Virus record (IMG/VR): IMGVR_UViG_3300037148_000025
Location: 1 to 64,000 of that record
Origin: a virus
Direction: 5' to 3' (one strand)
Length of the DNA stretch: 64,000 nucleotides
A program made the position numbers and the translations under genes. Under the pieces are notes generated by a model, which was given only the letters and a program-made list of their open reading frames with translations, made no database searches and was not told where the DNA came from. This document shows positions 9,379 through 60,635 of the stretch, piece after piece. Each line of letters begins with the position of its first letter. The stretch's first letter is position 1.

Positions 9379-9468
9379 TGGCGGGGAAGGTAGGATTCGA
9401 ACCCACGATACCCTTTCGGGTATGCCGGTTTTCAAGACCGGAGCCATCAACCACTCGGCCACTTCCCC
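9379..9468 (-). tRNA. tRNA-Ser(UGA)
   Basis: Cloverleaf, long variable arm, G73, encoded CCA. Confidence 0.95.
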
Positions 9469-9575
9469 GCTCGGCCAACCCTCCATTAATAACCATTGTA
9501 TCACATACCACATAAAAAAGCAATACCCTTTCGGGGATTATTTTAGATAGACTTCTCGCTAACATATTGTGGACA

Positions 9576-9652
9576 TGGTGCCCAAGGAGAGAGTCGAACT
9601 CACACTGTGCGGCTTTTAAGGCCGTTGCCTCTTCCAGTTGGGCTACTTGGGC
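9576..9652 (-). tRNA. tRNA-Leu(UAA), short variable arm
   Basis: Anticodon loop CU-UAA-AA, TTCGA T-loop, CCA. Confidence 0.85.
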
Positions 9653-9745
9653 AATTTTATTGTCCGTGTTTCGGCTGGCCCCCGAAAATCTCTCGTCTAT
9701 CCATCCCTTTACAGGTTCATAGCGCCGGACAATCTTGGTTGTTGT

Positions 9746-9940
9746 CTAGTAATTGCAAGTGATGATGGGTGGGCCTATATCGGGCCTAGGATCATAAAGA
9801 GGCATCGTTTGTGGAGTGTAAACGGGATAGAACGGCATCGGATATGTTGGCGGCGCTAGAACCTGCTCGTCTTCTGTAACTGTTACCCGCTTGATTACCT
9901 TGCCTTCTTTATTGAGTATCTCTGTCGTTGTTGTTTTCAT
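9746..9940 (-). CDS. Small Pro-rich hypothetical protein
   Basis: GGAGG RBS before ATG at 9940. Confidence 0.55.
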   Translation of the reverse strand: MKTTTTEILNKEGKVIKRVTVTEDEQVLAPPTYPMPFYPVYTPQTMPLYDPRPDIGPPIITCNY

Positions 9941-9961
9941 TGCATCCTCCTGAATGTGTTT

Positions 9962-10044
9962 TGGTGCGAGCAGAGGGACTTGAACCCCCATGATTGCTCA
10001 ATGGGTTCTAAACCCATCGCGTCTGCCAATTCCGCCATACTCGC
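9962..10044 (-). tRNA. tRNA-Leu(UAG)
   Basis: Cloverleaf, loop UU-UAG-AA, CCA. Confidence 0.95.
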
Positions 10045-10054
10045 ATAGTTACTT

Positions 10055-10129
10055 TGGTGGGCAATGCTGGACTTGAACCAGCAACTTCCACCTTGTAAAA
10101 GTGGCACTCTACCATTGAGTTAATTGCCC
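10055..10129 (-). tRNA. tRNA-Val(UAC)
   Basis: Cloverleaf, loop UU-UAC-AA, CCA. Confidence 0.95.
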
Positions 10130-10173
10130 GGTATTATATACCGTTTCATGTAAGATTTGTATCATATACATAG

Positions 10174-10250
10174 TGGTGGGGGAGGGTGGATTTGAACCAC
10201 CGATTTCAGCCTTATGAGGGCGGCGAGATAGGCCACTTCTCTACTCCCCT
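10174..10250 (-). tRNA. tRNA-CAU (Met; A1:C72 mismatch is initiator-like)
   Basis: Loop CU-CAU-AA, CCA; lacks the three consecutive G-C anticodon-stem pairs of canonical fMet. Confidence 0.85.
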
Positions 10251-10255
10251 AAACT

Positions 10256-10329
10256 TGGTCGGGGTACGTCGAATCGGACGACGACCACAGGTTTCCAGAA
10301 CCCGGATGCTGCCATAACACCTTACCCCG
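10256..10329 (-). tRNA. Atypical tRNA-Pro(UGG) (C33, A37, UCC T-loop)
   Basis: C1-G72/A73 Pro identity elements; loop UC-UGG-AA. Confidence 0.75.
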
Positions 10330-10335
10330 AAACTG

Positions 10336-10602
10336 TTACTTACAACCTCCGGAACAATCAATTGGATGCCCTGCTCTGCACATTGTCTTTTTGTCCCGCT
10401 TCTGCACAAAGGCATACATTGTGTCTCCACCTTCCATTGGACACACAGGACATTGTACACGAAACTTGCAGGGCTTTCCAGCATTGCTTCCCGCTGTAGA
10501 GCTAGACTTCTTTTGTCGTGCAAGTTTGTTGATACCTGCTTGACGTGCTCCTACATCCATACGGGGTGCTCGACCCTCATCTTCCAAAAACCATGTAGTC
10601 AT
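10336..10602 (-). CDS. Cys-containing hypothetical protein
   Basis: CPVC...C..GH..DC; RBS present. Confidence 0.55.
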   Translation of the reverse strand: MTTWFLEDEGRAPRMDVGARQAGINKLARQKKSSSTAGSNAGKPCKFRVQCPVCPMEGGDTMYAFVQKRDKKTMCRAGHPIDCSGGCK

Positions 10603-10613
10603 ATCTTCCTTTC

Positions 10614-10692
10614 TGGGGTGAAGTGCCGGATTCGAACCGTGCGAAAACTGGATTCACAGTCCAGCGCATTAAACCTCTCTGCCAACCTCACC
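10614..10692 (-). tRNA. tRNA-His(GUG)
   Basis: G-1/C73, loop CU-GUG-AA, CCA. Confidence 0.95.
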
Positions 10693-10799: not shown

Positions 10800-11160
10800 G
10801 TCATGTTAGCACCGCTGGCTCATTAAATCTTAATGGCCCGTTCTGTTTCCAAGTGGGCCAATCTCAGGTTAACTTACATTAACCAATTCTGGCAACATTT
10901 CGTTGCTAGTCTCATTGTCATTACTGACAGTGATTCCTGCAAGAAGTGCTTCCATTAACGTTGAATTTTCATTCGCAGTTATTGTTTTCCGCTGTTAAGG
11001 TAGTCGGCTACCTGCATGTCCACAACACTTAACCAATACTGTCGAAACCTTGACGTGCCCATAAATTTTATTGGTGGACACGACGGGAGTCGAACCCGTG
11101 TCCAATATTACTAATTATTGCTTCATACATGCTTACTCGCAACGGGGTGCTAGCCGCCAC
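10800..11160 (-). ncRNA. ssrA: Two-piece (circularly permuted) tmRNA
   Basis: Acceptor piece ending GGUUCGACUCCCGUCGUGUCCACCA (3' end at 11072) precedes an 11-nt spacer and the 5' end GGGCACGUCAAGGUUUCGAC (11060). G3-U70 pair and A73 present. Resume context AUAACU-GCG; tag ORF 10976-10869. Confidence 0.9.
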
Positions 11161-27695: not shown

Positions 27696-28133
27696 ATGAC
27701 AATTCGTGAGTATCAGGAGAAGGATGCTTGCGCGGTCTGCGCTATAAATCGTGCTTGTTTCAAAGATGCAGAACCAGATTCAGAACTTTTAGAGGATTTG
27801 AAGAAGTATAAAACGTGGGTTGCTGTGGCAGAAAATGGATATATTCAAGGATTTATCTCTGGACATGTTAAACACGGTATACCATACATCGACAATGTTT
27901 CTGTTCTTGAACTATATAGAGGAATGGGTATAGCAACAGAACTTATAGAGACGTTTGAAAAGAGTTTTAGTTGGCGGGATAGTCTGGGTAATGGTACGGC
28001 GTACTGGCTTCAAGTAGCATCGGACAATCCGGCGCAAAGGTTGTATTTTGATCTTGGATACAGGGTTGAATCTGTAGACGAGAATTTTTATGGCAGGGGA
28101 AAACATGCACTATGCATGCACAAAACTGCTTAG
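27696..28133 (+). CDS. GNAT (RimI-like) acetyltransferase
   Basis: V...YRGMGIATELI...N.A..LY..LGY. Confidence 0.9.
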   Translation: MTIREYQEKDACAVCAINRACFKDAEPDSELLEDLKKYKTWVAVAENGYIQGFISGHVKHGIPYIDNVSVLELYRGMGIATELIETFEKSFSWRDSLGNGTAYWLQVASDNPAQRLYFDLGYRVESVDENFYGRGKHALCMHKTA

Positions 28134-28368
28134 CAATAAATTGGTATACGATACGCTTTTTCTATATCGCGTATCATATACATTGGTATCGCAGTGGATT
28201 ACTGTAGAGCCACCAAATTAGCGTGAGGGAACTAAAGCCGAAGTCTAGGCTAAAGGCAGTGAAAGCACAGTCGGATTACTGGAGCAATTAACTGACGCAA
28301 GGGACTTAAATTCTTAGTAACTCTTGGAGGAGAAGTTTTAGGAGTTTTTTGTACTAAGGGAAATTACA

Positions 28369-30650
28369 ATGGCTAGTTATTCACCATCAAGTAATGGACA
28401 GTCAAATCTGCCTCAGTCAACGGTCAAGTATTATGATAAAAAGTTCCGCGAGAATCTGAAGGCTTAAAATTTGGGTCTTCTAAAACTTGACTATATCGGT
28501 GGAACCGTGCTATAATGGACACATTATGGCAGACAATACCGAGGAAAGACAGAATGCTGCAATTAAACAACTTTTCACAACCGCATTCTGAATCCCTAGA
28601 GACTAATACGTCAGGAATTGTAGGAAATTTTACTACGATTAAGATAGAGTCCGATCTGCGTGGTGACATGCAGAGTGAGCCAACAGTGATGTTGGATTCC
28701 TAAACACAAATACAAACACCATTCGTAGCATGTTCCGAACGTTTGGACTTGCCTACAAAGAGTGGTAATCAATATGAACTCTTTATGTATGTACCTATGG
28801 CTGCTAACACAACTCAGACTCTTGAGGGAACTGTTGGGGCAGGTATTTCAGTAAACGTTTTGACTACAACGGCCACCATTGGCGAATATGCAGATTACGC
28901 TAACTTTAGCTCGCTTTCGTTAGCTACGGCGATTAATTAATCGGTTGCCGTTAAATGGTTCTATATCGGTGAACCTCTGCTTAGCAGACAATACCGAGGA
29001 AACTTGAATGAAAGAAAAAACTAAGGCGTATTTAGCAGGATTGTTCGACTCAGAAGGAGATGTGTCTATTAGTAGACATATTTCTAAAGAGAGAACGTAC
29101 GTTGTTAAAGGTAAAGAATATACTTACGAAAATTACACTTCATATGGAGTAAGTTTGGCAGTATATAATACATATTTACCTTTAATGAAATATTTAGTTA
29201 AGCATTTTGGTGGAACATACCGAATGCTACGAAAGGAAACTGAAGTTAGACAAAATGTGTATGCGTGGAAACCGGATGGTTCTAAACATGCACTAAAAGT
29301 TCTAAAATTAGTTTATCCTTATGTTGCAATTAAGAAGAATCAAGTAAATTTATGTATACAATTTTTAGAACTTGAAGGAGAGACAGTTCCAGAAATTAGA
29401 AAAAATTTGTATAATGAATGTTTAATTGCAAATTCAAGTTCCGTAACGACTGACACGAACCATATTGTTAAATGGAAAATTAATCTACAAAATGCTTATT
29501 TCTCCGCGATTTTTGATGGAGAGGGAACAGCAGCGGTATACCACGGTCCTACTATTTGGATTGCTAATTCAAATAAAAGCCTTCTGGAAACAGCAAAGAT
29601 TTTATTTAATGCCAATAATGTAACTGGCGGATATAGAAAAAATGCAAAATCAGATAGGTTACCTGAGTATAGAGTTTGCGTTCCTGTAGAGCAAATGGAA
29701 AAGTTTATTTTAAGAATACTCCCGTATTCTACAATAAAGCATGAACAACTTCTTTTGGTACTTGAAGCTTTAAGGGGGGTTTCAAAGGAACGGAAGAAGA
29801 AAATTCAAGATAAACTTTTTATGATTAAACATCCATTGTCAATAAAGATACAGTCTGGACTCACAAGTGATTGTGAGAATTCTCTAACAGAGATGTTAGA
29901 AGATAATAACAATATCACGACAATACTGTAGAAAACGTAGCACGTGAACTTGCATATCGTCTTGGCGAATCGCTGAGCGGCCTTGTTCGCGCAACGGCTG
30001 ACGGTGCGGCAGCGGTTGATACAAGCGTTCTTACAAAGCTTGCAGCAGGCGCATCACCATCAACCGTATTTACAGCACTGAGTCTTGATCAGATTCGTAA
30101 TGCTGTGCAGAGTCTTGCAGGTCGTTCAGTTCGTCCGTTTGACGAAGCAAGCAAGACATTTGTAGGTGTAATTCACCCATTTGCTCTGGGCGATGTTCTA
30201 GCTGACGCTACTAATAACTCACCTATCGACATCTTGAAGCACACTCCAGTTGGTCTAGCACGTATGGAAGACCTTATTTCTGTTGATTTGACAGAAATGA
30301 TTGAACTTCCTTCAACTGGTGTTCGTTTCTTCCAGACTAACCAAGTTACAACCACACCTAGCTACAATTCTGGCGCTGGTGCATCAATCTTTACTGCTCT
30401 TCGTACCTACATCTTCGGACGTGACGGTATCTTTAGCATTAAGCTTGGAGCACAGGGCGACACAGGCTTTGGCGACGGTGAGTGGAGCAATATTAAGTGT
30501 AACGTAGTACAAAATGCTGCACCTAGCGTTGCTGATCCTGAAGGGTTGATCCCCGGATGGACTAGCTATCGTGTACATTTCACGACTTCACTTGGTCCTG
30601 ATACAACAATCAGAATCCGTGAGATTGACGCTGCAAGCGCAATTAGCTAA
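28369..30650 (+). CDS. Major capsid protein (N4-gp56-like), spliced: exons 28369-28464, 28713-28933 and 29918-30650 (349 aa)
   Basis: Joined exons total 1050 nt in one open frame: MASYSPSS...ENLKA|QTPFVACSERLDLP...LATAI|DNTVENVAREL...DAASAIS; follows the scaffold gene. Confidence 0.85.
28465..28712 (+). ncRNA. Group I intron 1 (248 nt, no ORF)
   Basis: P/Q/R/S-like elements (TATCGGTGG, AATACCGAGG, AGAGACTA, AAGATAGAGTCC); P3 CTTGAC/GTCAGG; IGS TTTGGGTCTTC pairs with ligated exon GAAGGCT|CAAA. Confidence 0.9.
28934..29917 (+). ncRNA. Group I intron 2 (984 nt) with homing endonuclease ORF
   Basis: Same core as intron 1; P7 GACTG/CAGTC; P3 ATGGTTC/GAACCAT; IGS TCGGTTGCCG pairs with ligated exon CGGCGAT|CGA. 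Confidence 0.9.
29008..29931 (+). CDS. Double-motif LAGLIDADG homing endonuclease
   Basis: YLAGLFDSEG and YFSAIFDGEG motifs; AT-rich. Confidence 0.9.
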   Translation: MKEKTKAYLAGLFDSEGDVSISRHISKERTYVVKGKEYTYENYTSYGVSLAVYNTYLPLMKYLVKHFGGTYRMLRKETEVRQNVYAWKPDGSKHALKVLKLVYPYVAIKKNQVNLCIQFLELEGETVPEIRKNLYNECLIANSSSVTTDTNHIVKWKINLQNAYFSAIFDGEGTAAVYHGPTIWIANSNKSLLETAKILFNANNVTGGYRKNAKSDRLPEYRVCVPVEQMEKFILRILPYSTIKHEQLLLVLEALRGVSKERKKKIQDKLFMIKHPLSIKIQSGLTSDCENSLTEMLEDNNNITTIL

Positions 30651-30670
30651 GGCTAAGTCTAACTAATTAT

Positions 30671-30694
30671 GTGGGAGAGAGAAATTTCTCCCAC
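30671..30694 (+). terminator. Hairpin after the capsid gene
   Basis: GTGGGAGA/TCTCCCAC stem; weak U tract. Confidence 0.45.
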
Positions 30695-30714
30695 ATTATG
30701 AAATAGGAGAAAAA

Positions 30715-59923: not shown

Positions 59924-59999
59924 GGGAGTGTAGCTCAGTTGGGAGAGCGCAAGTTTTGCATACTTGAGGTCGCAGGTTCGATCCCTGTCACTTCCACCA
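59924..59999 (+). tRNA. tRNA-Ala(UGC)
   Basis: G3-U70 pair, loop UU-UGC-AU, CCA. Confidence 0.95.
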
Positions 60000-60384
60000 A
60001 AACTATCAGGGAGAAGTATGCATAAGCATGTTTTTGACACAAAAGTAGGTTACGAAATGCCGGGACCGCCCTATTACAAAATTCTTATATTTTGTAAGTG
60101 TGGTGTGTTTGAAACATATGATGTCGTTAGTGGAGAAAGAGGAGCATGGGAAAACCAGAAGAGAATAAGTCGGTACGCTGTACGAGGGTTAGAGACAGGG
60201 AAATTCTCGGAGACTACTACCGAGATTTAGCTAACAATTATGGTCACTATGTTCCCCATACTAAGAAGGATGGAACAGTAACTGCTCCTGCATTGCAATG
60301 GCCTTTCCATCCAGACATTTCTGAGTATGAGAATTTGTAGAATTGGTATATGATACGCGTCTTTTACCAACTGGTATTATATAC

Positions 60385-60459
60385 TTCGGGTTCGTTCAAT
60401 GGTTAGGACACCGGGCCTTGAACCCGTGAATCGGAGTTCGAGTCTCTGACCCGGAGCCA
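60385..60459 (+). tRNA. tRNA-Gln(UUG) with C33
   Basis: U1-A72, G73, loop CC-UUG-AA, CCA. Confidence 0.8.
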
Positions 60460-60481
60460 GAAAGGACAGCACGGAAGTTAA

Positions 60482-60557
60482 TCCGGGATAGCTCAATTGC
60501 TAGAGCATTCGCCCTGTAAGCGAAAGTGTGAAGGTTGAAGTCCTTTTCCCGGAGCCA
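60482..60557 (+). tRNA. Atypical tRNA, anticodon UGU (Thr), with C33
   Basis: Perfect stems; loop CC-UGU-AA; T-loop UUGAAGU; D-loop lacks GG. Confidence 0.7.
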
Positions 60558-60560
60558 AAC

Positions 60561-60635
60561 ATACTCATGGTCTAACGGCATGATGCACGTCTCCAACACG
60601 TTGAGGTTAGGGTTCGAATCCTTATGAGTATGCCA
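60561..60635 (+). tRNA. tRNA-Trp(CCA)
   Basis: Loop CU-CCA-AC, G73, CCA. Confidence 0.85.

Follow-up and report, generated by a model that had tools for sequence, protein, structure and literature searches.

We describe two group I introns that interrupt the major head gene of an uncultured peat phage and end in A instead of G. The phage genome (IMG/VR record IMGVR_UViG_3300037148_000025; 89,414 bp, direct terminal repeats, rated complete) is kin to that of Tunturiibacter phage Tunturi_3 (PP885686), and the window analyzed here is its first 64 kb (positions 1 to 64,000). RNA contigs from peat show that the head pre-mRNA is spliced in nature exactly at U28464|C28713 and U28933|C29918. Textbooks treat the terminal G (omega) of group I introns as invariant, because exons are ligated only when it sits in the guanosine site. 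We consider it likely, with good though incomplete confidence, that both introns of the window are genuine, functional group I introns with a terminal A, and that the helices P9.0 and P10 hold this A in place for the second step. The gene, with its three exons and two introns, is laid out as follows (nt, nucleotides; ORF, open reading frame).

28369-28464, + strand: exon 1, 32 codons with the 3' end ...CTG AAG GCT, from the ORF list
28465-28712, + strand: intron 1, group I, 248 nt, without an ORF, from RF00028, RNA joints, and covariation
28712, + strand: omega of intron 1, A, from the RNA joint of 28464 to 28713 and the intronless homologue
28713-28933, + strand: exon 2, QTPFVAC...ATA plus AT
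28934-29917, + strand: intron 2, group I, 984 nt, with a homing-endonuclease ORF, from partial RF00028 matches, helices, and RNA joints
29917, + strand: omega of intron 2, A, from the RNA joint of 28933 to 29918
29918-30650, + strand: exon 3, C plus GAC AAT ... up to the TAA stop

Tunturi_3 is a podovirus of 97.6 kb from tundra soil with an acidobacterial host (PMC11924767). The protein encoded by exon 3 is 83.5% identical to the annotated major head protein of Tunturi_3, gp6, which itself matches PHROG 1357 'major head protein' (E 1.2e-13), and exon 1 aligns with gp6 residues 3-31. In addition, the window and Tunturi_3 share the gene order portal, two unknown genes, GNAT acetyltransferase, and head protein. 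The head gene is single in the whole phage genome, and a search of that genome for further introns of the same family finds none beyond introns 1 and 2.

The coding sequence confines the splice sites to a few positions. Gp6 is intronless and runs continuously over both sites (...FRENLKA|QTPFVAC... and ...SLATAI|DSTVENV...). The window codes for ...FRENLKA, meets a stop, continues 248 nt on with QTPFVAC...ATAI(N), meets another stop, and continues 984 nt on with (I)DNTVENV.... When all in-frame pairs of cut sites are compared with the intronless homologue, intron 1 can be cut at U28464/A28712 or at the non-canonical C28463/U28711 and nowhere else, and intron 2 at U28933/A29917 or U28934/C29918. 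None of the options for either intron ends in G. An earlier note on this DNA, made from the sequence alone, had claimed that intron 1 has no G-ending alternative, and the scan bears this out. There is no G anywhere in 28696-28724, around the 3' end of intron 1; an end at G28695 would bring in a stop codon; and an end at G28725 does not keep the frame, or costs five conserved residues, QTPF(V), if the 5' site is moved too. For intron 2, an end at G29919 would put the 5' site after an unpaired A and change D to N, and it is contradicted by the RNA joints described below. An end at C29918 (ATT|GAC) is equally good in coding terms, but the AT|C of the RNA joint excludes it. The claim that both introns begin with TAA needs a small correction, since this TAA is in frame in intron 1 only. 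In intron 2 the in-frame stop comes later, as the third codon counted from the codon begun in exon 2 (ATT AAT TAA).

The window stretch is present in 14 peat metagenome runs (2018-2025) and six peat metatranscriptome runs. We compare the contigs of four peat metatranscriptome runs with positions 28300-30700. Contigs of all four runs join 28464 to 28713, skipping 248 nt with the ends TA..TA, and 28933 to 29918, skipping 984 nt with the ends TA..CA. Each joint is free of positional ambiguity ('both = 0') and cannot be slid. Therefore, the last intron bases are A28712 and A29917. The joined contigs match the window without a mismatch over up to 2.6 kb, and one RNA contig of 2,612 nt spans 28713-28933 plus 29918-30700. 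These are the junctions (GCT|CAA and GAT|CGAC) and the terminal adenosines that the earlier note had predicted. The contigs settle the ambiguity of intron 2 in favor of A29917, and the continuity of gp6 at LKA|QTPF and AI|DSTV agrees with both joints. Intron-bearing RNA contigs are also present, with A at both omega positions. The mean depth of joined contigs exceeds that of intron-bearing contigs in four of the four runs; contig depth is a crude measure, and as a rough hint only it suggests good accumulation of spliced mRNA. No other joints, including cryptic joints and back-joints or intron circles, are listed for the four runs, although contigs cannot show absence. An exact search for the 30-mers across the two joined junctions finds nothing in IMG/VR or among 241 million JGI metagenome records; this is a weak negative, as entries close to the window may be hidden from such a search.

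Both introns have the core of a group I ribozyme. The elements on which the argument depends are the following.

28470-28480, + strand: guide of intron 1, P1 at 28474-28480 with exon 1 and P10 at 28470-28473 with 28713-28716, checked base by base
28599-28604, + strand: 5' strand of P7 of intron 1, with the guanosine-binding pair G28601-C28651 and A28600 bulged
28648-28655, + strand: 3' strand of P7 of intron 1 (28648-28652) and J7/9
28941-28950, + strand: guide of intron 2, P1 at 28944-28950 with exon 2 and P10 at 28941-28943 with 29918-29920
29446-29452, + strand: 5' strand of P7 of intron 2, with the guanosine-binding pair G29448-C29855 and C29447 bulged
29851-29859, + strand: 3' strand of P7 of intron 2 (29851-29856) and J7/9
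29008-29931, + strand: LAGLIDADG homing-endonuclease ORF, 307 amino acids, Pfam PF14528 (E 1.3e-8) and phrog_5046 (E 1e-27)

RF00028 matches 28369-28673 with 50.3 bits, the gathering score being 50. We test a hand model of intron 1 with 57 pairs on an alignment (A1) with four ORF-less relatives. In this alignment, 94.1% of the cells are paired, and 26 of the 57 pairs have changed on both sides (compensatory changes). In a control in which the partners are slid by 1-3 columns, only 36-42% of the cells are paired. With intron 1 numbered from 28465 (position 1), P1 pairs exon residues -7 to -1 with 10-16 and places the wobble U28464-G28474 at the 5' site. P10 pairs 6-9 with exon residues +1 to +4 and adjoins P1 directly. 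The core comprises P3 (22-27 with 146-151), P4 (32-37 with 73-78), P5 (44-52 with 59-67), P6, P6a, and P8, and P9 and P9.1 are each closed by a GUGA loop. P7 pairs 135 and 137-140 with 184-188, leaving A136 bulged. All five aligned introns have G-C as the guanosine-binding pair (G137-C187). The pair above it, the first of P7, is G-C in four of them and A-U in one, and the P7 register is fixed because this first pair covaries. P9.0 pairs 190-191 with 246-247 (A28654-U28711 and U28655-A28710), directly before omega, A248.

The core of intron 2 is the same as that of intron 1, and all helices pair perfectly when checked base by base. RF00028 matches the halves of the intron separately, 28907-29191 at 15.1 bits and 29760-29877 at 28.8 bits, with the ORF between them. 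The wobble at the 5' site is U28933-G28944, P10 adjoins P1 here too, and the 2-bp P9.0 consists of G29858-C29916 and A29859-U29915. P3 and P6a covary with the same-subtype relatives L057 and L121 (L numbers denote loci); the covarying helices of the intron 2 subtype are UGGUUC/GAACCA, UCUUGC/GCAAGA, and UUUGGC/GCCAAA. The guide pairings with a U-G wobble at each 5' site, the canonical G-C pair in P7, and the kinship of the two introns as members of one family, all proposed in the earlier note, are found as described there.

The ORF of intron 2 has two LAGLIDADG-type motifs, LAGLFDSEG near residue 9 and AIFDGEG near residue 165; PF00961 matches weakly, below the cut-off. The ORF is threaded through the ribozyme, with domain 1 in the P6a loop and domain 2 in the P8 loop. 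Its 14-residue linker (143-156) is encoded by P6a'-P6'-P7-P3'-P8 and its C-terminal tail by P8'-P7'-P9-P9.1, and the stop codon lies 14 nt into exon 3. L057 and L121 have kept this threaded layout.

At least 262 relatives of the head gene are present in IMG/VR. About one third of the best 80, which we examined, are interrupted, at many different sites, and the core motif of the window introns occurs at more than 116 further viral loci. Codon-exact mapping covers 53 intron instances with an uninterrupted homologue among the fetched loci, and terminal bases are counted only at junctions mapped in this way. Ties between junctions are settled by rule (U at -1, with G preferred). A blind prediction of splice sites for more than 100 further members, using P1/P10 pairing and open frames, was dropped, as it gave the right 3' site in about half of the known cases.

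Two intron families interrupt Tunturi_3-type head genes. The family of the window introns has a shared core and a 3' tail that consists of CCUAAACA, about five bases, and then omega. After removal of duplicates, it has 31 distinct mapped introns, 16 ending in A and 15 in G. The second family ends in G in eight of eight cases. A endings are found at six sites of the Tunturi_3-type head gene; one further case lies in another major-head gene (L168). All introns end in A at LKA|QTPF (five of five distinct introns), at VIH|PFALG (three of three), and at AI|DNT, which is occupied in the window only. A-ending and G-ending introns are both found at each of QY|EMF, YA|DYA, and GV|IHP. A tree of the core blocks, with the last three bases left out, has six changes of terminal state, at least three of them across well-supported branches. 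In this tree, intron 1 lies within a mostly A-ending clade and intron 2 beside a G-ending intron, and the two are not each other's closest relatives. Judged by the mapped junctions, the terminal base of the family is labile, and the family is not one clean A-ending lineage. The idea of a phage lineage of omega-A ribozymes, put forward in the earlier note, is thus right about the shared family and needs qualifying as regards the lineage. At least two A-ending introns, window intron 1 and the L030 intron (231 nt), have no ORF.

The head genes of Tunturi_3-like phages are intron hot spots (IMG/VR relatives L003-L198, for example L019, L026, L030, L064, L121, and L135), with at least nine insertion sites for the two unrelated group I families. 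Two introns per head gene are frequent, and another head-protein family (L144/L168, phrog_1357) has been invaded by the window intron family. L057 has a 40-nt insert in its head gene (L057:2813-2852) with a P1-like guide, GUACUUC, facing the exon sequence GAAGUAU. This insert has U at -1 and a terminal G and no ribozyme core, and a complete intron lies about 100 nt downstream. In L041, L042, L043, L079, and L082, protein matches overlap or are duplicated in the 5' parts of the head genes; extra exons, duplications, or degenerate introns could account for this.

A-ending and G-ending members of the window family do not differ in the R and S core elements, which include the G-C binding pair. Therefore, the pocket is not re-tuned for adenine, and no compensating core change is found in the A-ending introns. 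The two classes differ at the 3' splice site. A 2-bp P9.0 together with a P10 of at least 3 bp is present in 15 of 16 A-ending introns versus 2 of 12 G-ending ones (Fisher test on P9.0, p = 0.023; Mann-Whitney test on P9.0 plus P10, p = 0.001). The second pair of P9.0 covaries (U-A, C-G, A-U), and the first changes from A-U to G-C in window intron 2. In T4 sunY and Tetrahymena, the terminal G, P9.0, and P10 are treated as partly redundant determinants of the 3' splice site.

These features suggest how an A-ending intron might splice. The first step would be ordinary: free guanosine, held at the G-C pair of P7, would attack after the U of the P1 U-G wobble. We favor this usual first step because the binding site is intact. 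In the second step, the terminal A would enter the same pocket and be held there by the flanking helices, without the base recognition that a G receives. P9.0, formed by the two intron bases before omega and J7/9, would position the terminal A from the intron side. P10, in which the guide pairs with the first 3-4 exon bases, would stack directly on P1 and position the A from the exon side. The 5' exon would then attack, and the exons would be ligated. The simplest reading would be that, with both P9.0 and P10 in place, the terminal nucleotide is positioned for ligation whatever its base. Given P9.0 and P10, we infer that evolution would be free to place either A or G at the end of an intron of this family. 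Speculatively, a terminal A may even bring a benefit, by avoiding G-dependent hydrolysis of the 3' splice site, circularisation, or competition with free guanosine. A stronger proposal would be that base recognition of omega is dispensable, that P9.0 and P10 alone set the site, and that A has been selected repeatedly, in at least three switches, because it does away with these G-dependent side reactions in a very highly expressed late mRNA. We regard this stronger proposal as tentative and somewhat doubtful.

Several points weigh against our reading of the two introns. The introns in which A endings go together with P9.0 and P10 are related by descent; there are only three phylogenetically independent contrasts, too few for a sign test to have power (p = 0.25), and the link is suggestive but not proven. 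The terminal-base counts include ties that the rule (U at -1, then G preferred) resolved. The RNA evidence consists of assembled contigs, which give no rates and no view of an added 5' guanosine, and which alone do not exclude transcripts from an intron-less strain. The four RNA runs are all peat metatranscriptomes of 2024-2025 and may stem from one campaign. Finally, a change of the terminal G to A strongly impairs exon ligation in Tetrahymena and T4 td.

Because the engineered change has this effect on ligation, a helper in the second step deserves the most attention among the rival explanations. A terminal A would ligate exons too poorly for self-splicing, rescue would come from the intron 2 LAGLIDADG protein in the role of a maturase or from an RNA chaperone of host or phage origin, and capsid synthesis would be gated by that factor. 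Intron 2 does encode a two-domain LAGLIDADG protein, some fungal mitochondrial LAGLIDADG proteins are maturases, and engineered omega G-to-A changes cripple model ribozymes. In accordance with such a need, the A-ending mitochondrial intron ND5-717 is spliced less efficiently than a G-ending intron of the same organelle (PMC6545197). However, two introns without an ORF, window intron 1 and that of L030 (231 nt), end in A, and A endings at the six sites and in the one other head gene are accompanied by several different endonuclease genes or none. The greater mean depth of joined contigs in the four RNA runs, rough as it is, also speaks against a helper, and the intact P9.0 and P10 of the A-ending introns offer a means of fixing the site by RNA alone. 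Taken together, a helper-dependent second step is unlikely. The slow or helper-dependent late-gene switch that the earlier note had envisaged is unsupported, in view of the same ORF-less introns and contig depths.

It is very unlikely that the window alleles are not spliced at all, with the joined contigs derived from an intron-less strain that lives alongside and has identical exons, or from DNA of that strain in the RNA libraries, and the intron-bearing gene being dead or poorly expressed. Contigs cannot distinguish such strains. However, the genome is complete, with terminal repeats and one head gene, the intron-bearing sequence recurs in 14 DNA runs from 2018 to 2025, and neither joined 30-mer is found in IMG/VR or JGI metagenome contigs, a weak negative as noted above. 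Unlike in DNA, the depth of the exons is several-fold that of the 5' leader and the introns, and an intron-less allele would be a target of the intron 2 endonuclease. Even if such a strain existed, the intron boundaries and the terminal A would be unchanged. The terminal A could also be changed ahead of the second step into a base that the G site would accept, for example into inosine by deamination. Inosine can replace guanosine in the Tetrahymena reaction, and the edited base would leave with the intron and be invisible in the mRNA. However, neither 28712 nor 29917 shows an A-to-G change in the unspliced RNA contigs, which span 28435-28742 (two runs) and 28904-29947. In addition, the sequence around the terminal A varies among A-ending introns (UA|C, UA|G, CA|C), and it does not match the known motif of the bacterial tRNA deaminase. 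We consider such a conversion extremely improbable.

A terminal G is near-universal in group I introns and not strictly defining. The window introns have the core, the U-G wobble, the P7 G-C pair, and exact excision and ligation at the RNA level; they lack the terminal G. In this respect they belong to a rare, already documented exception and establish no new principle, and the earlier note was correct in calling omega-A a rare known exception. The best precedent is ND5-717 in the mitochondria of hexacorals (sea anemone and mushroom coral), which has a natural terminal A and whose exons are perfectly ligated in vivo (PMC8146996, PMC6545197). ND5-717 is accepted as a group I intron despite its final A, which is proposed to be advantageous by blocking 3' splice-site hydrolysis and circularisation (PMC8146996). 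The window introns resemble ND5-717 in the last base, the unchanged G-C binding pair, and exact ligation in RNA data. However, ND5-717 occupies one site only, as a lone organellar intron that is inherited vertically and has host genes in P8, whereas the window introns are small, mobile phage introns in the mRNA of a structural protein, two per gene, and in their family A and G alternate between close relatives and between sites.

A second precedent for a natural terminal A is the group I intron of the Coxiella burnetii 23S rRNA gene, which, by the title of the study, 'lacks the canonical omegaG' (Raghavan et al. 2007, J Bacteriol 189:6572; cited in PMC5423948, PMC11019260). It is one intron in an rRNA gene of an intracellular bacterium, whereas the window has two in a phage mRNA. 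Self-splicing is reportedly described for the Coxiella intron. Engineered omega and G-site mutants of the Tetrahymena ribozyme (Michel, Been and others, 1989-1991) likewise concern the effect of an A in place of the terminal G; in them, a terminal A is said to work well only when the G-C binding pair is changed to A-U. In contrast, the window introns keep the G-C binding pair unchanged.

Group I introns in phage major capsid genes are already known. The window introns share with those of T4 td, nrdB, and sunY and of Staphylococcus phage Twort the P1-P10 architecture, the U-G wobble at the 5' site, the P7 G-C pair with a bulge, P9.0 and P10 at the 3' site, early intron stops, and endonuclease ORFs in peripheral loops. 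Unlike these canonical phage introns, which end in G, they end in A, and they are without P2 and P7.1/P7.2. In addition, the endonuclease ORF of intron 2 runs through the core, whereas canonical phage ORFs lie in one loop. What is new is the occurrence of two A-ending introns in one essential gene, field RNA for both junctions, and a family in which alternation of A and G is coupled to P9.0 plus P10.

The head gene of this phage offers a compact natural system that breaks the terminal-G rule: one essential gene carries both a 248-nt intron without an ORF and its 984-nt relative. Close relatives that differ only in omega (A versus G) and in P9.0 and P10 make the choice of the 3' splice site, and the contribution of the terminal base to it, directly testable. 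If P9.0 and P10 alone set the site, nature would have provided a mutational series for dissecting the second step of group I splicing, with A or G at omega and P9.0 and P10 present or absent on one and the same core. There is also a consequence for annotation. Mappers that require or reward a terminal G would misplace the 3' ends in about half of the window family, and phage head genes would therefore be mis-annotated as fragments.

The GNAT acetyltransferase gene (27696-28133, + strand) lies directly upstream of the head gene, as does gp5 in Tunturi_3. It is followed by an untranslated leader of 235 nt (28134-28368), whose RNA contig depth is below that of the exons. Elsewhere, the phage has a permuted two-piece tmRNA (transfer-messenger RNA; RF04321, 110 bits) beside a cluster of six tRNA genes, and a second tRNA cluster in the window has four genes. 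These are listed jointly.

10935-11132, - strand; 9382-10691, - strand; 59924-60632, + strand: tmRNA and tRNA-cluster region

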